From an uncultured Candidatus Sumerlaeota bacterium (lineage in GTDB: Bacteria > Sumerlaeota > Sumerlaeia > MVZB01 > JAJFLK01): a DNA stretch of 64,000 nucleotides. The DNA lies in contig CAYXAU010000007.1 in assembly GCA_964463045.1 (NCBI GenBank), positions 39,916 through 103,915 of the forward strand. Reading direction: 5' to 3'. Below are positions 16,504 to 58,897 of the stretch, in pieces. The notes under the pieces are model-generated. The model searched no databases. It saw nothing but the letters and a program-made list of their open reading frames with translations, and was not told where the DNA came from. The position numbers and the translations under genes were made by a program. Position 1 is the stretch's first letter. Each line of letters begins with the position of its first letter.

Positions 16504-16800
16504 CGACGCGGGAAAGATTCTCCCATTGGGCGGGAGGGGCCGTCGCCGTTGGCCGGGCGAGAAAAGGTGTTGTCCCGACGCAATGGGTTTGGATAATGAA
16601 TCGCCTCTTAGGCGCCGTTGTGGAGCGTTGCGTTGGGCGCCGGCCGTGAAGTCGGCCGGGGCGGTTGCGCCGCGTCGCCGATGGGCGAGAGAGGGCCGGC
16701 CGCGGGGCTGGGCGCGCTCGGTCGCATGGGGGTTGTCGCTTGGCATGGGTCGGAGTTGCTCGCCAGAAGGCCAAAACCTGAATAGAGAGGATGACGGACG

Positions 16801-18735
16801 ATGAACCGGACGGGACGGAGGATCGGGCGGGTCGGGGCGTTGATGGCTCTTGGGTGGATCGTCGCCGCCGAAGGGATCGCTCAAAGGGGAGCGCAGGACG
16901 GCCAGTGGCCCACCTATGGCGGCGACCTGGGCAGCGCCAAGTACGCCGCGCTGGACCAGATCAACCGCGATAACGTGAAAGACCTCAAAATCGTCTGGCA
17001 ATGGGAGGCGCCGGACAACCAGGTCGCGGCCGAGGACCCCCGCAGCCGCCCCGGGGCCTTCAAGGTGACGCCGATCATGATCAAGGGCGTTCTTTATACG
17101 AGCACCTCGCTCGGCTTCGTGGCCGCGATCGACGCCGCCACGGGGCAGACGCTCTGGGTCTTCGACACCGAAAGCCGCAAGATGGGGCGGCCGACTAACC
17201 TGGGCTTCAATCATCGCGGCGTGGCTTACTGGACGGACGGCACGGAGGAACGCATTTTCATGCCTTCCAACGACGCCTTTCTCTGGGCCATCGACGCCAA
17301 GACGGGCAAGGCGGCGGCCGGCTTCGGCGACAACGGCCGCGTCGATCTGACGCAAGGGATGCGCCGGCCCGTCGAACGACGCCTCTATACGATGATCTCC
17401 CCGCCGCTAGTGATCCGCGACCGCGTCATCGTCGGCTCCTCGATCTTCGACGGCCCGACCACGCCGGAGATGCCGCCGGGCGACGTGCGCGCCTTCGACC
17501 CGCGCACCGGTCAGCTCATCTGGACGTTTCACACGGTCGCTCAGCCGGGCGAGTTCGGCAATGAAACCTGGGAGAACGGCTCGTGGGAATACACCGGCAA
17601 CACCAACGTCTGGACGATCATGAGCGGGGACGAGGAACTGGGGCTGGTTTACCTCCCCATCAGCACGCCGACCAACGACTGGTACGGCGGCCACCGCTTG
17701 GGGGATGGCCTCTTCGCCGAAAGTCTCGTCTGCGTGAAGGCCGAAACCGGCGAGCGCGTCTGGCATTACCAACTGGTGCATCATGGGCTCTGGGACTACG
17801 ACAATCCGGCGGCCCCCACGCTGGTCGACATCACCGTCGACGGACGGAAGATCAAGGCGGTCGCCCAGGTCACCAAGCAGGGCTTCTGCTACGTCTTCGA
17901 CCGCGTGACCGGCCAGCCGGTCTGGCCGATCGAGGAACGGCCCGTCCCGCAATCCAAAGTTCCGGGCGAGCGCACATCGCCGACCCAGCCGTTCCCAACC
18001 AAGCCCGCCCCCTACGAAAGCCAGGGCGTCACGCTGGATAACATCATTGACTTTACGCCGGAGCTGCGCGAAGAGGCCCTCAAACTGCTGGAGAATTATG
18101 AGTGGGGACCGCTCTTCACCCCGCCGAGCGAGAAGGGGACGATCTCCAACCCCGGCTGGGGGGGCGGCGCCAATTGGTGGGGAGCCTCCTTCGACCCCGA
18201 GTCGGGGCTCCTCTATGTCCCGTCGGTCACGTCGCCGATCGTCATTCAGCTCGGCAAGCCCGACCCGGCCCGATCGAGCTTTCAATTCGTGCGCGTCGGC
18301 GGCATGGGGATGGGCCCTCGGGGACCTCAGGGTTTGCCTCTCCTTAAGCCCCCCTACGGTCGGATCACCGCCATTGACCTGAACACGGGCGACCACGCCT
18401 GGATGGTGCCGCATGGGGATGGACCGCGGGCCCGGATCAGCGAAGTCGTGGGCCGGGACGTGGGGCCGGTCGGCGGGGGGGGGACGGGCCCGGTGCTGAC
18501 TAAAACGCTCCTCTTCATCGGCCAGGGGGGGGCGACCAGCCGCGGCCGGGGCGAAGAGGCGACCTCCGTCCTTCGGGCTTACGACAAGGCCACGGGCGAG
18601 GTCATTCATGCCGTGTCCGTGCCGGCGCCGCCCGCCGGGACGCCGATGACGTACATGTGGCAGGGCAAGCAGTACATCGCGCTGGCGGTCGGCGGAGGGA
18701 CCAACGCCGGTCTGATCGGCCTGGCCTTGCCCTGA
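16801..18735 (+). CDS. PQQ-dependent dehydrogenase (quinoprotein alcohol/glucose dehydrogenase family), secreted
   Basis: Signal peptide, then an 8-bladed PQQ beta-propeller with repeated W-motifs ([13 protein letters not shown]...LWVFDT...LIWTFHT...[14 protein letters not shown]). RBS GAGAGGA lies upstream. Confidence 0.85.
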
Positions 18736-18760
18736 GAGCCGCGCTGAGGCAGAATAAGGG

Positions 18761-20503
18761 TTGATTGGCATCCAGGGGGACGGGAGGAGGCGAAGCCTCA
18801 TGCGCTGGAGAGGGTGGTTTTGGGCAGCGGCATTGATCGCGGGGGCGGCGTTCGCCGTTCGGGCGGGGGCGCAACTTCCCGCCGACGCGGTCATGCTCGA
18901 CAAGGTCAAAATCCCGGAAAAGATCAAATCCGAGGACCTCTGTCCGGTCTATCTGGAGCCCTCGGCTCCCGACGGACCGACCTGGGAATACCAGGGGGTT
19001 GGCTATCGCGGAGCGAAGCCCGACGCCAGGGAGAAGTTCTTCCAGGACCCGGACGGTTACGCCGCCAAGCACGCCGAAAAGCGCTACATCGACAATTTCG
19101 TCCAGGCCATGAGCATCATCTGGTGCCCGGTGACCGATGAGGTCAGCCCGGGGGGCTTGGCCGCGTGGACGGCCCTCGGGATCAAGTGGGAAGCCTGCTG
19201 TGAGTTCTGCGAAAGCCAGGTGACGGATCAGGACTTCGAGGGCGCGCTGGACCGGCTCATCGAACGCGCCCGGATCAGCTACCGGCTCACGGGGGGCATA
19301 TACACCGAAGGGGCCTCATCGCCCGTCGAAGGGGCCGTCAAGGGGATCGCCAAGATCGACGGGGAGGGCGCCGCCCCGGCCGCCGCGACCGAGCCGGACG
19401 AACCCGCCTATCTCGCGGGCCGGACGCTCAAGCCGACCTACGCCGAAGGGATCGGGCTGATCTTCGAGAACCGTTGCGTCGAATGTCACCGACCGGGTGG
19501 CCTGGCCCCCATGAGTTTCGCCTCCCTCGGCGAAATCAAAAAATGGACGAAGTCGCTCAAGGAAACCATCGTCAATCGGGCGATGCCCCCCTGGCCGGCC
19601 GAGCCCGGCATCGGACGATTCGCCAACGACCGGAGGCTCACGCGGCAGGAGATCGATCTGCTGGTCCAGTGGATTGAGGCGGGCTATCCCCCGGGGGAGG
19701 GCCAGTATGCCCCCAGCCGGACCGCTGCCGAAGCCTGGACGATCGGCGAGCCTGATCACGTCTTCCAGCTTCCGGAAGCGACAGTCGGCGAGAACGTCGT
19801 CGGCGAGGTTCAGACGTTCAGCCTGGAAACGGCGTGGGATGAGGACCGATGGGTCGTGGCCGCCGAGGTCAGGCTGGGCGACGAATTCACGATCCTGGGG
19901 GTGGAGGCCGGGCCGCTGGGGGCGTTTTATCCGGGGGCGCGCGTCGTGCGCCATCTTCCGGGGACGGGTCGGCTGCTCAAAGCCGGGGAGAAAGTTCCCG
20001 TCCACGTGCATTACCTGAAGGAAGCCGGTTATTCGATCACCGACCCGGGGACCAAGATCGCCGTCCGCTTCGCTGAGGACGCCGCGGCGATCCGCTCGCC
20101 GATTCTGAGCCACCGCATGACTCCGGGAGAGTTCGCCATCCCCGCCGGGGCCGCTGATTTCCAGATCACCGCCCGCTTCGAGTTGCCTCAGGCCAGCCGG
20201 ATCGTCTCGCTGACGCCCATCCTGATGCAACGCGGCAAAAGCGTTCTTTTCCGCGCGATCCTGCCCGACGGCAAGCACCAGCCTCTTCTCTCGATCCCCC
20301 ATTGGGATCCGAACTGGAAACTGCACTATCAGTTGGCCGAGCCACCGGTCCTGCCGGAGGGAGCGGTCATCGAGATGACGGCCGTTTACGACAATTCCAA
20401 GCTCAACGTCCGCAACCCCAACCCCGACGTGGCCGTTTCCTCAGACCCATCAGGGGAATCGGCCGAGGGGTGGATCGACTACGTGCTTGAGCCGGCGGAC
20501 TGA
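18761..20503 (+). CDS. Secreted mono-haem c-type cytochrome domain protein with Cys-rich N-terminal region and beta-rich C-terminal domain
   Basis: Signal peptide. One CxxCH haem motif (CVECH). N-terminal cysteine cluster (CPVY...WCPV...WEACCEFCES). The C-terminal ~300 aa are not assigned. Confidence 0.6.
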   Translation: MIGIQGDGRRRSLMRWRGWFWAAALIAGAAFAVRAGAQLPADAVMLDKVKIPEKIKSEDLCPVYLEPSAPDGPTWEYQGVGYRGAKPDAREKFFQDPDGYAAKHAEKRYIDNFVQAMSIIWCPVTDEVSPGGLAAWTALGIKWEACCEFCESQVTDQDFEGALDRLIERARISYRLTGGIYTEGASSPVEGAVKGIAKIDGEGAAPAAATEPDEPAYLAGRTLKPTYAEGIGLIFENRCVECHRPGGLAPMSFASLGEIKKWTKSLKETIVNRAMPPWPAEPGIGRFANDRRLTRQEIDLLVQWIEAGYPPGEGQYAPSRTAAEAWTIGEPDHVFQLPEATVGENVVGEVQTFSLETAWDEDRWVVAAEVRLGDEFTILGVEAGPLGAFYPGARVVRHLPGTGRLLKAGEKVPVHVHYLKEAGYSITDPGTKIAVRFAEDAAAIRSPILSHRMTPGEFAIPAGAADFQITARFELPQASRIVSLTPILMQRGKSVLFRAILPDGKHQPLLSIPHWDPNWKLHYQLAEPPVLPEGAVIEMTAVYDNSKLNVRNPNPDVAVSSDPSGESAEGWIDYVLEPAD

Positions 20504-20555
20504 GGGTCGCCCGAGGCCGAAGCGGAGGCGGGGGCGCCCGGCCCAGCCGCCGAGA

Positions 20556-20588
20556 GTCGCCGCCGGAACGGTCGGCACCATTTTTTCG
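20556..20588 (+). terminator. Candidate rho-independent terminator after the cytochrome gene
   Basis: GC hairpin (gccgccggaacggtcggc) followed by a TTTTTT run at 20581-20586, about 55 nt after the stop at 20503. Confidence 0.3.
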
Positions 20589-48332: not shown

Positions 48333-51300
48333 TCACTTGAGCGTGGCCAGGAAGGCCACCAGATCGGCCAGCTCCTGGACGTTGATCGCCTCGGTCAGCC
48401 CCGTGGGCATCAGGGAGACGGCGCTTTTGCGCCGTTCCAGAACCTCTTCGGATTTAAGCTTGATCATCGCTCCCGTCGCCTCGACGATCTCCACCTCCTC
48501 TTCGCTCTGGCGGCGCAGATAGCCGCTCAGATAGCCCTGCCCGCGGGCTCGAAAGACCCAGACTTCGTATTCGGGGGCGATCGCGGCGCTGGGGTTGACG
48601 ATCGAGTCGAAAAGGCCGTCGAGGCCGAGCTTGGCCCCGATGCGCGTTAACTCCGGCCCAATCTCCCCTCCGTCGCCGTCGATTCGGTGGCATCGGGCGC
48701 ACTGCGCCCCTTCAGACCGGAAGAAGACCTCGCGCCCTCGAACCGGATCGCCCGCCAGATCGACGAAGGCGGCCTTCTCCGGCAGGGCGGCCCCCTCGCC
48801 GGTTCGGGGCCGCGGCACAAGCTGCTCGGCCATGGTTCGGATTTCCTCGTGGGGGCTCCGGTAGAGCGCCGGCATCACGTCAAACAAAATACTGGGGCGC
48901 ATCTCATTCTCTTCGATCATCGACAGCAGGAGGAGCGCTCCCGGACGGGAGGCGGCCAGCAGATGGGCCGCTTCGATCTGAATCTCCCGATCGTTGTATT
49001 GATCCAACATGACCCGCCGCAAGGCGTGCTGCCCGGCTTCCCCCCGCAGGCGGCCCAGGGCTTCCAGCGCGACGCGCGACAGGGCCGGCGGACGCTCGCG
49101 GACGGTCGCCTCCAGAGCCTCGATCAGCGCCGAACTCGCCGTGGGGTCGAGCCCCGGAGCGGCCACGAGCGTCCCGGCGGATTCCAGGGCTTCGCGCCGG
49201 ACCGAAAGATCGCTCGCCGGATCGCGAGCCACTTCCATCAGTGTCGCTGCGAAAGCGACGCGGCGGGTTTCCCGGATAAACCCGATCGCGCCGGAGCGCA
49301 GAGACTCGGTCTCGAACGCGGCCCGAAGCGCCCGCTCCAACTTGGGATCGTCCAGCGCCGCCCCCCACGGTCGCCCCCGATCCCGCGCTAATTCGGCCAA
49401 GGCGGCGGTCGTCAGCTCTTCGGGGGCGGGCCCAGCCAGAACGCCGATCAACGCCCCCGCGGAAGTTTCTGAAGGGACGGCCCCCAACACGCGAATCGCC
49501 GTGCGGCGCTCCTCAGTCGGTCGATCCGAACTGGCCAGAATCTCCCGCGCCCAGGCGAGGGCGGCCGGGGGATGAAGTTCGAAGGCCAGGCCGGCCGTAC
49601 GGGCGTCCCACCGGCGACCCCACCGGTCGGCCAGTTGGGCGAAGGCTTCGGCGGCACGTCCCTTGAGAGCGATACCGGCCGCCAGACGATAAAACGGATC
49701 CTGGCCATCCCATTGAGCGGTCAACTCAAGCGTCGCCCGTTTCCCCCGCGCTTCGGAGGAGCCGGCCAACGCCAACAGGAGCTGACGCCGAGGGCGCGGA
49801 TCGGCGTCTTCCAGAAGCTTCAGCGCCCGTTCAACCCCTTCGGGACCGGACGGCGTGAGGAGCCGCACGGCGAGCGTTCGCAGCCGAGCGTCGGGGTCGC
49901 CAAGCATCGCGGCCGCCGCCCGTTCCCGCATGGAGGGCCGCCGCCAGGCCAACCATGCGGCCCGGGCGCGCATCAAAGGGTCCGCCGCCGCCAGCAACTT
50001 CTCCAGCCGCGCATCCACTTCGGGATCGGCGAGGACGGCGAGGGCCTCAGCCCCCTGATGGTGGGCGGCGGCGTTCGGCGACCGGAAAGCGCGGAAAGCT
50101 CCCTCGATCGAGGTCGGGTCCAGGGCCAGCGAACGGTAAGGCGCCCCCGGCGGGGCAAGGCGGTAAATCCGCCCGCGCGTGAAGTCGCCGATATCATGGC
50201 CGCCGACGCCGGGATCGTACCAATCGGCCACCAGCACGGACCCATCCGGGGCCACCGCTACGTCGGTGGGGCGGAACCAGGTATCTTCCCGGGCCGCCAG
50301 GAGCACTTCGGGCTCGACGTGATAGGAAGCCCCCTCCGGCGAGAGATGATAAGCCCGGAGGAGGCGCGGCCCGGCGTCAGCGTGGAGCAACGCCCCCCGA
50401 ATTCGTTCGGGCAAGAGGCTGCCCCAGTAGAACGCCATGCCGGTCGGCGAGCCGAAGCCCGTCCTTAGGATTTTCGGGATCACCCCCGGCCGATCCTCGT
50501 TCCAGTGGACCTCGTCGCGTCGGCGATCGCCCTCCCGGCGCGGCCAGTAGCCGTAGTCACCCCCTTCCAGAACATGGAGCAGCCGGGTCTGCTCGTTGCC
50601 GTCGTCGTCGTTGTCGGAGATGAAGACTTCGCCGAAGGGATCGACGGCGGGCTCATAGGGATTGCGGAAGTTCCAGGCCAACAGGTCCAGACGCCGCCCA
50701 TCCAGATCGGTCCTCAGTACGCTTCCCGCTGGAAAAGGGGCGTTGCGGCCCACCCACGCCCGCCGGCCCTCCCCGTCGGTCACGTCGAGGCCCTGATCGC
50801 CATTGCTCATGTAGAGGAGGCCATCGGGCCCTATCATGACCCCATGGAGGCCGTGATCGTTGTCGATGCCGCCGAAGCCGGTCAGGATGACGGTGCGCCG
50901 ATCGGCCCGCCCGTCCCCGTCGGTGTCTTCCAGATAGAAAAGGTCGGGCGACTGACAGACGTAAACCCGCGCGCCGACGACGGCGATGCCGAGCGGGGCC
51001 TGAAGCGACCGATCCTGATAGTAGGTCCAGGCCCGGTCGCAGCGGCCGTCACCGTCGGTGTCTTCCAGAACCCGAATGCGATCCCCATCGGGGTGAGGGG
51101 TTGGATTCTTCCAGATTCGATAGTTGGCCGCCTCAGCGACCCAGACCCGGCCTCGCGGGTCCACGTCGATCGAGGTCGGGTTCACCAGATCGGGCTCGGC
51201 GGCGAAGAGCGTCACGCCCAGGCCGGGGGCGACGTCAAAATCCTCCACGGCCGCTGACGGGGCGCGCTGGGCCCGGCCGGGCCGGGACCCGGCGGTCAGA

Positions 51301-51350
51301 CAACCGATCAGTCCGCCAAGGAGGACGAAGGCGCACGACGCAGGTTTCAT
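48333..51350 (-). CDS. PVC-type haem-binding protein: membrane-bound-dehydrogenase-like beta-propeller + HEAT repeats + C-terminal cytochrome c
   Basis: N-terminal FDVAPGLGVTLFAAEPDLVNPTSIDVDPRGRVWV is the Pirellula/Verrucomicrobium dehydrogenase-domain start. The central part has HEAT-like repeats. The C-terminus has CARCH with SLMP motif, typical of the Planctomycete-type CxxCH domain. Lipoprotein-like signal. Confidence 0.8.
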   Translation of the reverse strand: MKPASCAFVLLGGLIGCLTAGSRPGRAQRAPSAAVEDFDVAPGLGVTLFAAEPDLVNPTSIDVDPRGRVWVAEAANYRIWKNPTPHPDGDRIRVLEDTDGDGRCDRAWTYYQDRSLQAPLGIAVVGARVYVCQSPDLFYLEDTDGDGRADRRTVILTGFGGIDNDHGLHGVMIGPDGLLYMSNGDQGLDVTDGEGRRAWVGRNAPFPAGSVLRTDLDGRRLDLLAWNFRNPYEPAVDPFGEVFISDNDDDGNEQTRLLHVLEGGDYGYWPRREGDRRRDEVHWNEDRPGVIPKILRTGFGSPTGMAFYWGSLLPERIRGALLHADAGPRLLRAYHLSPEGASYHVEPEVLLAAREDTWFRPTDVAVAPDGSVLVADWYDPGVGGHDIGDFTRGRIYRLAPPGAPYRSLALDPTSIEGAFRAFRSPNAAAHHQGAEALAVLADPEVDARLEKLLAAADPLMRARAAWLAWRRPSMRERAAAAMLGDPDARLRTLAVRLLTPSGPEGVERALKLLEDADPRPRRQLLLALAGSSEARGKRATLELTAQWDGQDPFYRLAAGIALKGRAAEAFAQLADRWGRRWDARTAGLAFELHPPAALAWAREILASSDRPTEERRTAIRVLGAVPSETSAGALIGVLAGPAPEELTTAALAELARDRGRPWGAALDDPKLERALRAAFETESLRSGAIGFIRETRRVAFAATLMEVARDPASDLSVRREALESAGTLVAAPGLDPTASSALIEALEATVRERPPALSRVALEALGRLRGEAGQHALRRVMLDQYNDREIQIEAAHLLAASRPGALLLLSMIEENEMRPSILFDVMPALYRSPHEEIRTMAEQLVPRPRTGEGAALPEKAAFVDLAGDPVRGREVFFRSEGAQCARCHRIDGDGGEIGPELTRIGAKLGLDGLFDSIVNPSAAIAPEYEVWVFRARGQGYLSGYLRRQSEEEVEIVEATGAMIKLKSEEVLERRKSAVSLMPTGLTEAINVQELADLVAFLATLK

Positions 51351-51417: not shown

Positions 51418-52800
51418 CTAAGACCGAGGCGGGAACTTGCTGTCGAATCGACGGGCCTCGGCCCCGGCCCGCTGCGCGCCCTGGAGAGCCTCCTCGGGGC
51501 GCTTCAGGCCTTCGAGCGCCGCCACGACTTCGTCCCCGACATCCGTCCGCCAAGCCTCCCAGAAATCGGGCTTGGGCTCGAACTGCGCCGAAGGAACTTC
51601 TCCCACCGGAACGGCGTAGGCGGGGTGTTCGTCCAGGAAGGCCCGATAAGCGGGCTGGGCGACGGCGGAGCGGCGAACGGGACAATAACCGGTCCGGATC
51701 GCCCACCGGGCCGCTCGATCGGGCTCCAGAATAAACTTCATGAAATCCCAGGCGACGGCCCGCTCCTCGGGCTCCCGATCGGCGAAAATGCCGACGTTCA
51801 TCCCCTGAAACAGCGTTCGGCGCGCCTCGGGCGAACCGGCCTCCGGCCGCGGGGTCGGGGCGGCGCGCCACTGAAAGCGCCCCGCGGCGAAGCGATCGTT
51901 GAACGGGAACGCCGCCGAGGAGTAGATGAACATGCCGACGAGCCCCGTGCCGAAGACGCTCGCCGGATAGGCGGCCTCCAAACGCGCCGCGCCGTCCCGA
52001 TGAATCAGATCGCTCAGGAAAGCCAGCGCACGGCGGGCTTCCGGTCTCAAAAGCGTCGGTTCCCAACGCGCGTCGAGGAAGCTCCCCCCCGCGCTGAAGA
52101 GGAGCGTGGCGAAGGATTCAAGCTGGGGACGAACGATCATGCCGCGGCAGGGGCGGCCATCCTCAGCCCGGAGCGAGGCGACGGCGCGGGCGATCTCGCG
52201 CAATTCTTCCCAGGTGCGCGGGGCTTCGCCGAACCCGGCCCGACGGAAGAGATCGACGTTATATTGAAGCACATAGGCGCTTTTGTTCATGGGGAGCGTG
52301 AGGAGGGACCCGCCCCATCGATTGTTTTCGAGGAAGCGGGGGAAAAAATCCGCCCGGTCGGTGGCGTCCCACCCCGTGGGGCCGCTGAGATGGCTCTCCA
52401 CGGCGTCGAGGCGTCCGCGATCGTAAAACCGCGTCGTCCAGCCCTCATACATCATCGAGAGCGGGGGAGGCCGACGGGCCGTCAAGGCCGCGATCAGTTT
52501 CTGGTAGAGGGTTCCGTAGACGCCCTGGAAGACCGGCAACACTCGCGCGTCGGAACGCCCGGCGTTGAATTCATCGGCGAAATCGGTCAGGAGCTCTTGA
52601 TGACCACGTTCTCCCATCGCATGCCAGAACTCGACGACCCGCGGTCCACGCCGCCGCCGCGAAGGGGCACAGGCACCGCTCCCCCAACCCAGGGCCGCTG
52701 CCCCCAGGCCCAGCAGGGCCTTTCGGCGGACGAGACCACGCCCCCCTCGGCGCGGTGCCCCAGGCATTGGGGCGGCCCTGGCGGGAGAAGGCGGTTTCAT
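51418..52800 (-). CDS. ABC-transporter extracellular solute-binding protein family 1 (sugar-type), Tat signal; orphan (no permease adjacent)
   Basis: Twin-arginine motif RRKALLGLGAAAL. SBP_bac_1-like fold length (460 aa). Confidence 0.8.
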   Translation of the reverse strand: MKPPSPARAAPMPGAPRRGGRGLVRRKALLGLGAAALGWGSGACAPSRRRRGPRVVEFWHAMGERGHQELLTDFADEFNAGRSDARVLPVFQGVYGTLYQKLIAALTARRPPPLSMMYEGWTTRFYDRGRLDAVESHLSGPTGWDATDRADFFPRFLENNRWGGSLLTLPMNKSAYVLQYNVDLFRRAGFGEAPRTWEELREIARAVASLRAEDGRPCRGMIVRPQLESFATLLFSAGGSFLDARWEPTLLRPEARRALAFLSDLIHRDGAARLEAAYPASVFGTGLVGMFIYSSAAFPFNDRFAAGRFQWRAAPTPRPEAGSPEARRTLFQGMNVGIFADREPEERAVAWDFMKFILEPDRAARWAIRTGYCPVRRSAVAQPAYRAFLDEHPAYAVPVGEVPSAQFEPKPDFWEAWRTDVGDEVVAALEGLKRPEEALQGAQRAGAEARRFDSKFPPRS

Positions 52801-54004: not shown

Positions 54005-54601
54005 ATGTTGGAAGAAGAGCAAAACTCAGGAACCCAGACGGCTGAGTCGCGTCGACTTGGGATTCAGGGCTTCGCCCAGTTTCTAAAGCGTTTTGGCTAT
54101 TTTCTGAAACTGCGAGGTCTAAGCCTGACCAGAGAACGCCAGCAGATCCTGGAGAAGATTTGCGACCTTTCCGGGCGGTTTACGGTTGATGACCTGTTCT
54201 TCGCCCTTCATGCCGCCGGCAGACGCATCAGCAAAGCCACCATCTACCGCACCGTCCAGTTGCTCCTGGAATGCCGGATCATCCGCGAGACGCCTCTGGG
54301 GGCGCGCCAGGGGGTCTACGAGCTGGCCGACGCCGGCCATTATCATGGCCACATGGTCTGCCAGCACTGTCACCGGCTGATCGAGTTTGGCGGGCCGACG
54401 CTGGAACGATTCGTCCACGAGGCCTCCGTCAGTCACCAGTTCCTGCCGCTCTCGGCGCAGATCAAATTCCTCGGCTTCTGCAACGAGTGCGTCAAGGCCA
54501 ATCCCCCGGCCCTGCGAGAACAAACCTGCGTCCCGTTCCTCAAGTACGCCCAAAGCCGTGAGGGAGCCGAACCCAAACCCGCCGAGGCGCCGGAGAATTG
54601 A
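54005..54601 (+). CDS. Fur-family metalloregulator (Fur/Zur/PerR type)
   Basis: N-terminal wHTH (LTRERQQILEKIC.....FTVDDL.......ISKATIYRTVQLL). Metal sites HYHGHMVCQHCHR and CNEC (structural Zn CxxC...CxxC). Confidence 0.85.
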   Translation: MLEEEQNSGTQTAESRRLGIQGFAQFLKRFGYFLKLRGLSLTRERQQILEKICDLSGRFTVDDLFFALHAAGRRISKATIYRTVQLLLECRIIRETPLGARQGVYELADAGHYHGHMVCQHCHRLIEFGGPTLERFVHEASVSHQFLPLSAQIKFLGFCNECVKANPPALREQTCVPFLKYAQSREGAEPKPAEAPEN

Positions 54602-54732
54602 CCCCGCGCCGGGCGCAAGGCGTTCAAGGGCGGCGTTCCGGCCGGGCGGCCGACGCGCGGCTCGCCGCGGCGGTCGCTCTTGCTTCCCCTGGGCAGCCTA
54701 TCGTCGGCGATCACCCTTGAGGCCTCTCAACG

Positions 54733-55518
54733 ATGGGCGACCTGAGCGAGTTCCCCCTAAGCCTTCGCGTTTTTCTGAAGGCGTATCCGTGGCGGCGAGT
54801 CGACCCGGTGCCTTGGGCGCCGCTGGGCAAGCCGCTGGCGCGGTGCCGCTTGGCGCTGGTTTCGAGCGCCGGCTTTGTCCGGCCCGGTCAGCCCCCTTTC
54901 GACGACTCCCGTCGAGGCGGGGACCCCACCTTCCGCCAGATCCCCGCCGAGACCGACGTTTCGACGCTCATCGACTGCCACCGGAGCAAGGCCTTCGATC
55001 ACAAGGGGCTGCGGGAGGACCCCAACCTGGCCTTCCCGCTGGACCGGCTGCGCGAGTTGGTCGAGGCAGGGCGGATCGGATCGCTCAACGGGCGGCATCT
55101 TTCCTTCATGGGGTCCCTCACCGTCGTAGGACCCTTCATCAAGGAGACGCTGCCGGAGGCGGCCGGCTGGCTGGTTACCGACCAGGTCGATGCCGCGCTG
55201 CTCGTACCGGTCTGACCGATGTGCAACCAGGCCGTCGGCCTGGCCGCCGCCGAACTGGAACGCCGCGGCATCTCGACCGTGACCCTTCAGCTCCTGCGCG
55301 AGGTTGCCGAGCGCGTGCGTCCCCCGCGGGCTCTCTTCGTTCCCTTTCGTCACGGTTATCCATTGGATAGTCCCGGCGATCCGGCCCGCCAACGGGCGGT
55401 CATTGAGGCGGCCCTCAAACTGCTTGAAGACCCGGCGCTCAGCCCGCCGGGGCTGGTGGACTACGCGCCTGGGGCGGTCGATGACTGCGGCGAGCCTGGC
55501 CCCGCGGCGGCATCGTAG
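54733..55518 (+). CDS. Candidate selenoprotein, glycine/betaine/sarcosine/D-proline reductase selenoprotein-B-like C-terminal domain; in-frame TGA (Sec) at 55213-55215
   Basis: ORFs 54733..55215 and 55219..55518 share a frame and are separated only by TGA, yielding ...ALLVPV-U-PMC-NQAVG... (UxxC). The patterns LALVSSAGFV, HKGLREDPN, ELERRGISTVTL and FVPFRHGYPLDSPGD resemble the GrdB/PrdB C-terminal region as recalled from memory. A hairpin lies 11 nt after the TGA. Confidence 0.5.
55227..55243 (+). other. SECIS-like hairpin immediately downstream of the in-frame UGA
   Basis: CCAGGC-CGUCG-GCCUGG (6-7 bp GC stem, loop containing G and U) begins exactly 11 nt after the UGA, matching the spacing of bacterial SECIS elements. 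Confidence 0.3.
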
Positions 55519-56635: not shown

Positions 56636-57781
56636 CTAGGCGGCGTTGGCCAAGGGAATCGAGGGCGCCGCATGGCCCGCCAATTCGAGCAACCGGCGGG
56701 CCATGCGTTCGGTGGCGCGGCCGGGATCGTGAAAAATATGGGCGGCGGTGGCCTGTCGCTCGGCCGACAGGCGCCCGGGCTCGGCCAACTCCTCCCGGAC
56801 GGCCGGGCCAAGCTCGTCGGCTTCGCCGATGATGCGCCCCATCCGGCGGCCGTGCGTCCGGGTATCCATCGCCGAGCCGGGCATCCGGTCCCGCTGGGCG
56901 AGCAGTTTGGGGACGTCGACGAAGATGATCGGCCGATCCAGCAGGCAGTACTCGTAGGCGACGGAGCTGGCGTCGGTCACGAGCAGGTCGGCGGCGGCCA
57001 GAAGCGGCGTCACGTCGCTTCGCGTCGCCAGGCGGGACCGTGCGCCCAACGCCGGACCGATTTCCGTCCAGAGCGCCTCCAGCGTGATTCCCCGCGGCAG
57101 GTGCGGGTGATCGTGGAGCTTGAGGATGAGGTTGAAGCCCGTGGCCTCCAGGGCTCGAACCCCCGCCAGGCCCAGCAGCTCGAAGCTGTTGTGACGCGCG
57201 CCGGTCGGGCACCAGAGGATCGTCGGGCGGCCCGGATCGAGGCCAAACGTCGAGAGAACCTCGTCGCGGCGGAAGGCGCCGTTGACGAGTCGATCGAGCT
57301 TCGGCATGCCGATGAGCTCCATGCGCGGATCGCCGGGTTCGAGGATTCCCCGTTCGAGGTATTGCTCCATCATGTAGCGGCCGGGGAAGAAGAGTTTGTC
57401 AAAAGCTCGATATTCGGCCGAGACGGCGAAATTGCGGAAGGAGACGCCGTGGAAGATCTGGACGGCGAGGCGGGCTCGGCGCGGATGAATCTTCCGGTCT
57501 CGATTGGAGGTGACGAAAACGTCGTAGGGGTAGGGATCGGCGCCGCTCGTACGAACCAGATGAGCCGGATCGACGTCGAACTCGCCGAAGAGCCGTTCGT
57601 TCCAGTACTGGACCCGCTTGGGGCGCAACCATCCGATCAGCGGCCGGCGCCGGTATCGCCCGGAGCTCAAGCCGAGCCCAAGGCCGGGAACGCGCCTCAA
57701 AAGCTGATAGACCGGCTCAAACATCGCGAAATTGACGCGATGCTTGCCGCAGAAAAGGATCCACGGATGTTTCAGGCCCAT
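56636..57781 (-). CDS. CDP-glycerol glycerophosphotransferase (TagB/TagF)-like polyol-phosphate transferase
   Basis: Size and pattern (PTILWCPTGAR, LILKLHDHPH, LLVTDASSVAYEYCLLDRPIIF) resemble the Glyphos_transf family. The family call is from pattern memory only. Confidence 0.5.
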   Translation of the reverse strand: MGLKHPWILFCGKHRVNFAMFEPVYQLLRRVPGLGLGLSSGRYRRRPLIGWLRPKRVQYWNERLFGEFDVDPAHLVRTSGADPYPYDVFVTSNRDRKIHPRRARLAVQIFHGVSFRNFAVSAEYRAFDKLFFPGRYMMEQYLERGILEPGDPRMELIGMPKLDRLVNGAFRRDEVLSTFGLDPGRPTILWCPTGARHNSFELLGLAGVRALEATGFNLILKLHDHPHLPRGITLEALWTEIGPALGARSRLATRSDVTPLLAAADLLVTDASSVAYEYCLLDRPIIFVDVPKLLAQRDRMPGSAMDTRTHGRRMGRIIGEADELGPAVREELAEPGRLSAERQATAAHIFHDPGRATERMARRLLELAGHAAPSIPLANAA

Positions 57782-57823: not shown

Positions 57824-58897
57824 TCAATCCAGCGGATCATCGGGGCCGGCGGCGTCTTTCGTGCAGCCATCGCAGATCAGACCCTTCACGTCGCCGTTGA
57901 GAAAGCGACGTCGATAGTCGGTGTAGACCGGACCTCGCCAGAGGCGGTCCAGCGGCTCCTTCGAGAGGTCGCCGACGACGCCGGTCTGTTCCCAATCGGC
58001 GCAGCATTGGACGAGCCGGCCGTCGTAGAGGACGTAAATCTGTTCGAAGAGCCGATTGCACCAGTCGAACGTCTGGAGGGCGTGGACGGCGATCTCGTCG
58101 GCTTTGATGCCGCGATGATGGCCTCGGTTTTCCAATTGATTGACGTTGATCTTGACCCCGCGGGCCGCCCAGAAGGCGCGAATCTCGCCCAGCCGATCGT
58201 GAATGTCCGTCGTATCGAGCATGACCACGCGCACGCGGATCTTGTAGCCGCCCGATCGGGCCATCTCCAGAAACCGCTCGATGTTCCGGAGCACACGGTC
58301 CAGCTTGATCCCCATGATCTTCTCGTAGACGACCGGATCGATCCCCTGGACCGAGAAGTTGAGCCGGTCCAGCCCCGCCTCCAGAAGCCCCTTGGCCATC
58401 CGTTCGGTCAGGAGCCCTCCGTGGGTGTTGATCTTGGTGAACTGCCACGGCTGCTTGCGGCGCGTGATGTAGGCGACCCGTTCGGGGAGTTCCGGATCGA
58501 GCATCGATTCGTTCATCAAGTAAGGGGAGAACCGCCGGACGCCCAGATCGACGCACTGATCGACGATCGAGCGGTAAAGATTCCAATCCATCCGGCGTCC
58601 CATGGGGATCTCCAGCTCCGTCTTCTTGTTCGGGCAGAAGACGCAGTTGGCGTTGCAGCCGGAGACGGTCTGGATCTGGACGGCTTTAGGGGCGTCCGGC
58701 ATCGGCTCGCGCCGCTTGAGATGCCGCAACGTGAGGCGCTCAAGGAGATGCCGCGAAAGCTCGGGAACGTAATACTTGGGGGGCATCGGAGCCGGTTGGC
58801 CGGGACGCGCGGGCAGGCTCGGAGGCCGAGGGCGGCCTCCCCCGTCGCCGCGCGGTCGCCGAGCCGCCAGTCTAGGCACCGTGCCGACCGGCGGCAA
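57824..58897 (-). CDS. Radical SAM protein with C-terminal SPASM/twitch-like Cys cluster
   Basis: CNANCVFC (Cx3Cx2C) near the N-terminus. The C-terminus has CC...C..C (VQCCADWE...LICDGCTKD). The likely true start is the internal Met (MPDAPKAVQIQT). Confidence 0.8.
   Translation of the reverse strand: MPPVGTVPRLAARRPRGDGGGRPRPPSLPARPGQPAPMPPKYYVPELSRHLLERLTLRHLKRREPMPDAPKAVQIQTVSGCNANCVFCPNKKTELEIPMGRRMDWNLYRSIVDQCVDLGVRRFSPYLMNESMLDPELPERVAYITRRKQPWQFTKINTHGGLLTERMAKGLLEAGLDRLNFSVQGIDPVVYEKIMGIKLDRVLRNIERFLEMARSGGYKIRVRVVMLDTTDIHDRLGEIRAFWAARGVKINVNQLENRGHHRGIKADEIAVHALQTFDWCNRLFEQIYVLYDGRLVQCCADWEQTGVVGDLSKEPLDRLWRGPVYTDYRRRFLNGDVKGLICDGCTKDAAGPDDPLD

Follow-up and report, generated by a model that had tools for sequence, protein, structure and literature searches.

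A membrane-anchor-free glucose-dehydrogenase-type quinoprotein and a three-module cytochrome c protein encoded side by side in an uncultured Sumerlaeota bacterium: a candidate periplasmic electron-transfer pair

The membrane glucose dehydrogenase that uses pyrroloquinoline quinone (PQQ), mGDH or Gcd in Escherichia coli, is a single polypeptide whose transmembrane region reduces ubiquinone (PMC13230246), and the polyol dehydrogenase SldA/SldB of Gluconobacter relies on the protein encoded by a small neighbouring gene (Shinjoh et al. 2002, as cited in PMC13230246). A PQQ dehydrogenase gene that adjoins a gene for a dedicated mono-haem cytochrome c is a common arrangement, and soluble enzymes of the glucose dehydrogenase (GDH) type, which are very common in environmental bacteria, amount to 485 genes across 175 genomes of 10 phyla in one count (bioRxiv 10.64898/2026.07.10.737718). 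Here, we describe a locus that suggests how the members of a defined clade of these soluble GDH-type enzymes may pass on their electrons without the membrane domain. It lies in a 64,000-nucleotide (nt) stretch of a contig from an uncultured Candidatus Sumerlaeota bacterium (CAYXAU010000007.1, positions 39,916 to 103,915 of the forward strand; the whole stretch is called the window below) and consists of two open reading frames (ORFs) on the plus strand. ORF1 (16801..18735) encodes a PQQ dehydrogenase of 644 amino acids (aa), and ORF2 (18800..20503, from its likely start) encodes a secreted protein of 567 aa with three modules.

On balance, we favour the reading that ORF1 and ORF2 are a periplasmic dehydrogenase and electron-acceptor pair, in which the N-terminal module of ORF2 (the N-module) tethers a cytochrome to the dehydrogenase. 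Since ORF1 is without the transmembrane region that feeds ubiquinone in mGDH, it would need another acceptor: having lost the quinone-reducing domain, it could not pass electrons to the membrane quinone by the route of its relatives, and a soluble acceptor would presumably be required. ORF2 would be exported via the Sec pathway. Its N-module would most likely dock onto the dehydrogenase, with a shape held by disulfides or by a Zn or Cu ion, and through a flexible linker it would keep a mono-haem cytochrome c beside the dehydrogenase. The cytochrome could then take single electrons from reduced PQQ and hand them to the respiratory chain. The C-terminal domain of ORF2, which resembles the catalytic core of peptidylglycine alpha-hydroxylating monooxygenase (PHM) and dopamine beta-hydroxylase (DBH), is a descendant of haem c-copper monooxygenase-like proteins that has lost the copper ligands.

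Such a pair would follow the same logic as methanol dehydrogenase with its cytochrome cL, or as the quinohaemoprotein dehydrogenases, but the parts differ: an anchorless GDH-type propeller, an undescribed YHS-like module and a degenerate PHM/DBH-like protein with a cytochrome c. ORF1 belongs to the same propeller lineage as mGDH, but its N-terminal transmembrane region is missing and its partner is a soluble secreted protein. SldA/SldB, to the extent that the citing source describes it, is similar in that a dehydrogenase of the same lineage without a membrane domain of its own relies on a small neighbour gene. The small neighbour is of another kind in our case, as the mature N-module has no hydrophobic stretch and is predicted to adopt a soluble hairpin-and-helix fold. 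It is hydrophilic, Cys-bearing, YHS-like and encoded downstream, whereas SldB is small, hydrophobic and membrane-bound, its gene lying upstream, and no sequence relation between the two was detected. MxaFI/XoxF with cytochrome cL (MxaG/XoxG), and the type I alcohol dehydrogenases with cytochrome c550, likewise combine a soluble periplasmic propeller with an adjacent gene for a mono-haem acceptor. ORF1 differs from these enzymes in falling far below the cut-off of their family profile (TIGR03075) and in having no vicinal Cys-Cys, and the cytochrome of ORF2 is not cL/c550-like and is embedded in a three-module protein. In the type II quinohaemoprotein alcohol dehydrogenases (1yiq, 1kv9), a covalent tether brings cytochrome c near the PQQ; in those enzymes dehydrogenase and cytochrome share one polypeptide, whereas here the cytochrome sits on a separate partner module.

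The assignment of ORF1 can be made in some detail. Behind an N-terminus of ~22 residues with a signal-like hydrophobic stretch, it carries a full-length PQQ propeller of eight blades (PF01011, residues 36-626 on profile positions 1-595, E 6e-203; 676 bits against a gathering cut-off of 26.7), and its sequence contains no CxxCH. The initial annotation of a PQQ dehydrogenase without a fused cytochrome domain is thus borne out. It had also treated the enzyme as a type I PQQ alcohol dehydrogenase, an identity that we reject: the match to TIGR03075 (the methanol/ethanol family) amounts to 231.7 bits in three fragments, below the cut-off of 480.05, and the only two Cys of ORF1, 311 and 363, form no vicinal pair. 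The nearest family, and the best NCBIfam match, is TIGR03074 (glucose/quinate/shikimate) minus the transmembrane domain. ORF1 covers profile positions 150-768 of 783 and does not reach the whole-protein cut-off (415.6 against 832.65 bits). Residues 157-792 of E. coli Gcd, the entire periplasmic domain, align from residue 23 of ORF1 with 33% identity, which leaves the transmembrane domain of Gcd without a counterpart. Gcd H262, D354, W404, T424, D466 and K493, to which the mGDH mutagenesis literature assigns active-site roles, are conserved at the aligned positions of ORF1 (H138 is assigned to H262, D332 to D466 and K359 to K493), and the position of Gcd H775 is not conserved. In a sequence search of the PDB, the top matches of ORF1 were the type II enzymes 1yiq and 1kv9 (E 3e-39), over the N-terminal half only. 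Judged from these alignments, ORF1 is a soluble relative of the membrane glucose dehydrogenase without the transmembrane domain, and membership of the family suggests a sugar, a polyol or an alcohol as the class of substrate. ORF1 also contains a DxD motif, D332-Y-D334 (window 17794-17802). Such a motif has been treated as lanthanide-type and is present in all environmental GDH-type enzymes examined (bioRxiv 10.64898/2026.07.10.737718). Since E. coli Gcd has D-M-D at this position, we draw no conclusion about the metal of ORF1.

The evidence that ties the two genes together comes from other genomes. A pattern scan with one genome per species found 148 relatives, from which 80 loci were kept. 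The N-module is a free-standing secreted protein of ~180 aa, ending in ...YTEGAKSPVEGAIKKP, in 65 of the 80 loci, and is fused to a cytochrome c and a PHM-like domain, in the manner of the window, in 15. Pairing was assessed at 63 loci whose upstream sequence exceeded 2.1 kb, the remaining 17 being truncated. Immediately upstream of the N-module, on the same strand, 45 of the 63 have a dehydrogenase with over 45% identity to ORF1, at a median gap of 98 nt, and a dehydrogenase fragment lies upstream in 9 of the 17 truncated loci. The phyla represented by these loci are Planctomycetota, Acidobacteriota (Blastocatellia among others), Hydrogenedentota and Sumerlaeota. Pairing of the ORF1/ORF2 type is therefore far beyond chance, and the adjacency recurs in at least four phyla. 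These results uphold the proposal of the initial annotation that the dehydrogenase and ORF2 are a conserved pair, and they change the identity of the conserved partner, which is not the cytochrome, as had been supposed, but the Cys-bearing N-module, usually a separate protein of ~180 aa.

A natural fusion of the two partners, found in one lineage, adds to this picture. The protein P0130 (L166:5001-7577) has 858 aa and consists of a signal peptide, an N-module and a PQQ propeller 51% identical to ORF1. Its cluster at 90% identity (including P0165-P0171) has 8 members, all of 858 aa, on at least 15 contigs, one of them of 4.9 Mb, and P0130 itself is an intact gene in a 72.8-kb contig, where no cytochrome gene is adjacent. 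Read-through of a stop codon does not explain it, because the domain order reverses the gene order. We regard this fusion as good evidence that the dehydrogenase and the N-module work together. Two other, apparent in-frame merges of a dehydrogenase with an N-module, both in gene order, were set aside and not used as evidence: at L068:6150-8504 what looks like a deletion of ~100 nt joins a truncated dehydrogenase to the middle of the signal peptide of the module, and frameshifts interrupt the merge at L017. Errors of assembly or sequencing are the probable source of both. P0088 and P0090 (L085:1405-3015) join the N-module to a YVTN-type beta-propeller of ~350 aa (PDB 1l0q, E 6e-10), and the contig of P0090 is too short to inform on context. 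We considered this propeller as a lactonase, but the 6-phosphogluconolactonase-like matches (E 0.09-0.5) were not significant, and the YVTN-type match was the only significant one. The N-module can be free-standing, fused to the dehydrogenase or fused to the cytochrome.

Could the adjacency of ORF1 and ORF2 nonetheless be meaningless, the two genes encoding unrelated secreted proteins that happen to lie next to each other upstream of rpsB? Neighbouring genes in the window are housekeeping genes, and most related dehydrogenases have no N-module, as would be expected of chance neighbours. The recurrence of the gene order across phyla and the P0130 fusion argue the other way, as does the coherence of the paired dehydrogenases in a tree. 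In a crude neighbour-joining tree of 125 dehydrogenases, a single clade (40 paired and 4 unpaired members) holds all 40 dehydrogenases that are paired with a free-standing N-module. Synteny and fusion together strongly disfavour chance adjacency, which we consider extremely improbable.

The layout of ORF2 was derived from alignments and from an AlphaFold2 model built from 120 homologues, with a predicted local distance difference test score (pLDDT) of 93.3 and a predicted TM-score (pTM) of 0.88. All ORF2 features lie on the plus strand, and residue numbers refer to the 567-aa form. A Sec-type signal peptide (aa 1-24, 18800..18871), placed by homologue alignments, ends in ...RAGA and would be cleaved before QLP. 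The mature N-terminus, QLPxDAVxLxKVKIxE, is strongly conserved in homologues, and no twin-arginine motif was seen in ORF2 or in its homologues. The N-module follows (aa 25-181, 18872..19342), the element that is genetically tied to the dehydrogenase, with tandem YHS/TRASH-like repeats. It is joined to the rest by a linker (aa ~182-205, 19343..19414) that is of low confidence in the model (pLDDT 57-78 in blocks 181-200) and of variable length in homologues. Two groups of fused homologues vary this layout. Shortened variants of ~415-450 aa in loci labelled Sumerlaeota (P0053, L014, L053) have neither the first YHS-like repeat nor the N-terminal PHM-like sandwich, and keep the Cys repeat, the haem domain and the C-terminal sandwich. 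Others (P0029, P0034, P0037, P0038, P0046, L003-L006, L008) have a C-terminal tail with extra Cys motifs, DCCEAPxKAK and GTCxKC, which ORF2 of the window does not have.

ORF2 has seven Cys in total. The N-terminal cluster of seven described in the initial annotation comprises five N-terminal Cys (48, 109, 133, 134 and 137), the other two being the haem Cys 226 and 229, and only four of the five are invariant. These belong to the second repeat (19124..19210), C109 in WCPVTD and C133-C134-x-x-C137 in WExCCxFC, and are invariant in both alignments and in 80 of 80 genome loci, loci that were found by patterns containing these very Cys. P0130, found independently of the Cys patterns, also carries all four. 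C48 is replaced by Asp in 9 of 79 homologues. Modelled alone (pLDDT 90.6), the N-module consists of two repeats, each a beta-hairpin followed by a short and a long helix, and its halves align in register (CPV...W..G..Y with WCPVTD...W..G..WE; hhalign E 0.006).

For this module, the known structures to compare are the YHS/TRASH metal-binding domains, for example the C-terminal region of phenol hydroxylase PhN (2inn). The N-module of the window does not match PF04945 (YHS), and a free-standing homologue scores 14.8 bits against it, below the cut-off of 30.3 (E 0.029). Foldseek repeatedly aligned parts of the module with alpha subunits, those of phenol hydroxylase, toluene/o-xylene monooxygenase and toluene 4-monooxygenase, but never significantly. 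The resemblance to a YHS/TRASH ribbon is weak, but the indications point in one direction. A sequence search of the PDB with ORF2 gave chance matches only, an exhaustive search with phmmer found no more than 49 relatives of the N-module among 1.84 billion representative proteins, and our literature search found no paper on the N-module or on YHS together with PQQ. The N-module is thus a small, tight and unannotated family, with no Pfam family above threshold and no significant relative in the PDB.

The conserved Cys raise the possibility that the N-module is itself a redox relay, in which they form a redox disulfide or a Cu site that passes electrons from PQQ to the haem, or to a copper monooxygenase in relatives. 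On this hypothesis the module would supply in trans a function like that of a vicinal disulfide, which is absent from the glucose dehydrogenase lineage; a vicinal disulfide sits above the PQQ in methanol and ethanol dehydrogenases, and the N-module Cys may offer a parallel to it. The invariance of the four Cys, which include the vicinal C133-C134 and the C134-x-x-C137 pair, would fit such a relay, as would the lack of vicinal Cys in ORF1, the retention of the N-module Cys with or without a fused cytochrome, and the AhpC/TSA redoxin that cytochrome c-PHM relatives bear at the same N-terminal position. The module is, however, predicted to fold as a YHS/TRASH-like ribbon, the Cys of such ribbons normally bind a metal that is structural or being trafficked, and no YHS-type domain is known to act as an electron carrier. 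Export also bears on the question. Proteins with Fe-S cofactors are exported by the twin-arginine translocation (Tat) pathway, and because the signal peptides here are Sec-type, an Fe-S cofactor in the N-module is disfavoured. This leaves disulfides or Zn/Cu, and a structural or docking role is therefore favoured over a relay, which we think unlikely even though it is the leading rival.

The second module of ORF2 is a mono-haem cytochrome c domain (aa ~206-300, 19415..19699), helical in the model. The single haem site noted by the initial annotation is indeed the only haem motif of ORF2, CVECH at aa 226-230 (19475-19489). That annotation had staked its reading on the conservation of CxxCH in orthologues, and C226 and H230 are found in 120 of 120 homologues and C229 in 118, so that the motif is practically invariant and this check does not refute the reading. 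The candidate axial ligand M262, within MPPWP (19583-19585), is kept in 119 of 120 and would take the distal position. The window's type of fusion to cytochrome c is found in thirteen homologous genes, which, together with the conserved haem motif and Met and the acidobacterial hexahaem cytochrome described below, speaks for a link with a cytochrome. A profile search of the PDB sequences with the ORF2 family gave the cytochrome c PccH (4rlr, E 0.022). A match to thioredoxin (3or5, E 0.056) in the same search was discarded as an alignment artefact, members fused to a redoxin having been forced into the same columns.

The third module (aa ~311-567, 19730..20500) was, as the initial annotation had it, a large and beta-rich C-terminal domain (secondary structure of the model by DSSP). 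Its guess of a monooxygenase-like fold proved well aimed: Foldseek matched the domain to human DBH (4zel, E 5.7e-13) and to about thirty entries of rat PHM, including 1phm (E ~1e-9), over both sandwiches (280-300 aligned columns, TM-score 0.5-0.6 when normalised to target length). The C-terminal ~257 aa take the two-sandwich fold of the PHM/DBH catalytic core (PF01082, PF03712). ORF2 nevertheless has no match to either Pfam family at E up to 1, and no PHM was found when the PDB sequences were searched with the profile of the ORF2 family. Among relatives, P0066, P0081, P0093, P0110, P0120 and P0085 reach 23.5-30.4 bits with PF03712, for which the cut-off is 23. Distant homologues of ORF2 are cytochrome c-PHM-like proteins of ~400 aa, some with an N-terminal AhpC/TSA redoxin. 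Of this type, P0066, P0081 and P0093 share the domain order and 29-37% identity with ORF2 (E 1e-43 to 1e-62), but they keep the copper ligands, and their N-terminus is a redoxin, EF-hand motifs or nothing rather than a YHS-like module. No functional study of bacterial cytochrome c-PHM-like proteins was found in our literature search.

The six copper-ligand columns (HH / H / HxH / M) are all kept in 15 of 15 copper-type relatives. ORF2 has L366, G367 and H404 in the CuH columns (HH / H) and I474, M476 and S554 in the CuM columns (HxH / M), and even H404 is not conserved among the fused forms, whose CuH columns hold V/F/L, A/S/E/Q and H/F/Y. The copper ligands and the loop after HH are lost in all six fused homologues examined, and some planctomycete copper-type members keep the sequence 'DEMC'. 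Judged from these columns, the C-terminal domain is a copper-less derivative of a copper monooxygenase-like fold with five of the six ligands lost. It differs from PHM and DBH also in that a haem c domain precedes the fold, and no ascorbate-type chemistry would be expected of it. The copper-intact and copper-less versions form a natural pair for comparison.

This bears on the suggestion, also made in the initial annotation, that ORF2 may be a second catalytic partner. In such a case the haem and the PHM-like domain would form a haem-dependent oxidase, hydroxylase or binding protein that handles what the dehydrogenase makes or consumes, and the pairing of the genes would reflect a shared pathway and not electron transfer from one protein to the other. 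The PHM-like domain is under selection, with D349, R478, Y510, D531-N532-S533, N536 and E553 conserved, and the attachment of the N-module to a YVTN-type beta-propeller can be read in the same sense, as can the acidobacterial gene clusters, which add an Amidohydro_2 protein, a VOC/glyoxalase, a di-haem peroxidase-like protein and a copper-intact cytochrome c-PHM protein. Against catalysis stand the lost copper ligands and the deletion of the post-HH loop in all fused forms; moreover, electron carriers typically have a haem c ligated by His and Met. The copper-bearing relatives conserve these same polar residues, which so look structural rather than like a new active site, which is why we read the PHM-like domain as probably a scaffold or binding domain and not a monooxygenase. 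An enzymatic ORF2 is, in our estimate, quite unlikely.

Copper-intact relatives occur in the neighbourhood of the pairs. The cluster of the Blastocatellia type runs through genes for an Amidohydro_2 protein, a VOC/glyoxalase, a repeat protein of unknown family, a di-haem CCP/MauG-like protein, a copper-intact cytochrome c-PHM-like protein, the dehydrogenase, the N-module and a hexahaem c3/c7-like cytochrome (acidobacterial loci L016, L019, L021, L034, L046, L049, L050 (L050:73-8225), L056, L067 and L075). In Acidobacteriota the hexahaem cytochrome directly follows the N-module in 12 loci. The Amidohydro_2 protein of this cluster has a Tat signal and is possibly a lactonase-type hydrolase. Three planctomycete loci (L027, L028, L051) have a copper-intact cytochrome c-PHM gene upstream of the dehydrogenase, in divergent orientation. 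The metagenomic locus L093 also has a copper-intact cytochrome c-PHM-like gene divergently upstream, and its dehydrogenase falls in the clade paired with the N-module although no module is adjacent. Copper-intact cytochrome c-PHM genes are found near 12 of 65 pairs; within 4 kb we estimate ~9 of 65 pairs against 2 of 55 unpaired dehydrogenases, a comparison confounded by shared locus ancestry, so that the enrichment is only suggestive. The locus also links the soluble GDH-type enzymes with the unstudied bacterial cytochrome c-PHM/DBH-like proteins.

A broader extension of these observations can be imagined, in which the N-module is a quinoprotein subunit of a new kind, a redox- or metal-bearing adaptor that couples a clade of soluble GDH-type enzymes to c-type cytochromes and, where the copper-intact relatives occur (Acidobacteriota and some Planctomycetota), to haem c-PHM-like copper monooxygenases. 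The quinoprotein would there replace ascorbate as the reductant, and the protein of the window would be a derived form. We hold this to be rather unlikely.

The same neighbours could be taken to mean that the N-module is not a stable subunit but helps the dehydrogenase or the PHM-like copper proteins to mature or to obtain their metal, perhaps as a Cu/Zn chaperone of the periplasm. It has Cys that could act as ligands, YHS/TRASH domains are linked to metal binding and trafficking (by the Pfam description, with a faint match here), and copper-intact genes are found near some of the pairs. Yet the Cys are kept where the N-module is fused to a copper-less PHM-like domain, the module also accompanies dehydrogenases without a nearby PHM-like gene, and Cys ligands are unsuited to the Ca or lanthanide of PQQ enzymes. 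Covalent fusion to a dehydrogenase, as in P0130, or to a cytochrome fits a stoichiometric partner better. We rate a chaperone role as very unlikely and return to the dehydrogenase-acceptor pair as the preferred reading.

Several observations weigh against that preferred reading, and some of them concern the pairing. The dehydrogenases paired with fused proteins, ORF1 included, fall outside the clade described above and among unpaired relatives. When the test was reversed, only 4 of 59 metagenomic loci with a dehydrogenase 49-67% identical to ORF1 (those with enough downstream sequence) had an N-module downstream, and the neighbourhoods of these dehydrogenases are diverse. In 18 of the 63 N-module loci no dehydrogenase is adjacent, mainly in Thermoanaerobaculia and in some Planctomycetaceae, and the planctomycete pairs of dehydrogenase and N-module have no adjacent cytochrome. 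Other points concern the proteins themselves. The Pfam cytochrome c profiles PF00034 and PF13442 give sub-threshold scores with ORF2 (18.7 against 21.3 bits and 20.2 against 27 bits; E 8e-4 and 4.5e-3), and the PHM-like domain retains 43-54% identity among the fused homologues, which implies a conserved role that the acceptor function leaves unexplained. Finally, no pqq genes were found in a partial check of the window (~20 ORFs scanned, together with a radical-SAM motif search). The only radical-SAM/SPASM-like ORF, at 57824-58897, was considered as PqqE and rejected, scoring 26 bits against the PqqE cut-off of 381. Because only 4 of the 59 related dehydrogenases have the N-module downstream, it is not a general subunit of the dehydrogenase family but an accessory that belongs to certain sub-lineages.

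As for the boundaries of the genes, the same-strand frame ending at 20503 that the initial annotation reported is confirmed, while its start, its length of 580 aa and its distance of 25 nt from ORF1, which all follow from a TTG at 18761 in the mechanical ORF, are not retained. The ATG at 18800 is the likelier start, because a Shine-Dalgarno-like GGGAGGAGG (18782..18790, plus strand) lies 9 nt 5' of it, three public records with the identical gene give 567 aa, and twenty full-length homologues align from its Met. The gap between ORF1 and ORF2 is then 64 nt and holds no terminator-like site in our scan of the region, which, like the Shine-Dalgarno-like sequence, counts in favour of the pair. A terminator after ORF2 had been proposed too, and a G+C stem of 5 bp with a 5-nt loop (20562-20576), followed by ACCA and six T (20581-20586), is present on the plus strand (20562..20586). 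However, 3 such sites were found across the region against 3.2 expected in shuffles, and the RNA fold at this site is no more stable than in shuffles (z = +0.84), so that the terminator is plausible but unsupported. Upstream of ORF1, the 297-nt gap contains a sigma-70-like promoter match, TTGTCC-16-GATAAT (16570..16597, plus strand), which fits the consensus weakly (1 site against 0.4 expected from shuffles).

The window has a G+C content of 65-70%. ORF1 is preceded by genes for an AXE1-like esterase and an RlpA/DPBB protein, and ORF2 is followed by rpsB, tsf, pyrH, frr, uppS and cdsA. Another periplasmic haem protein is encoded at 48333-51350 (minus strand), a secreted protein of 1005 aa that combines DUF7133 (NHL/propeller-like) and HEAT repeats with a cytochrome c domain at its C-terminus, and it adjoins a solute-binding protein (51418-52800). 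A Fur-family regulator (54005-54601, plus strand) is followed, within 54005-55215, by an ORF of 160 aa with partial similarity to the PrdB/GrdB selenoprotein-B family (TIGR04483), its 78 bits falling well short of the cut-off. The radical-SAM/SPASM-like protein mentioned above (57824-58897, minus strand) adjoins a weakly TarF-like protein at 56636-57781 on the same strand.

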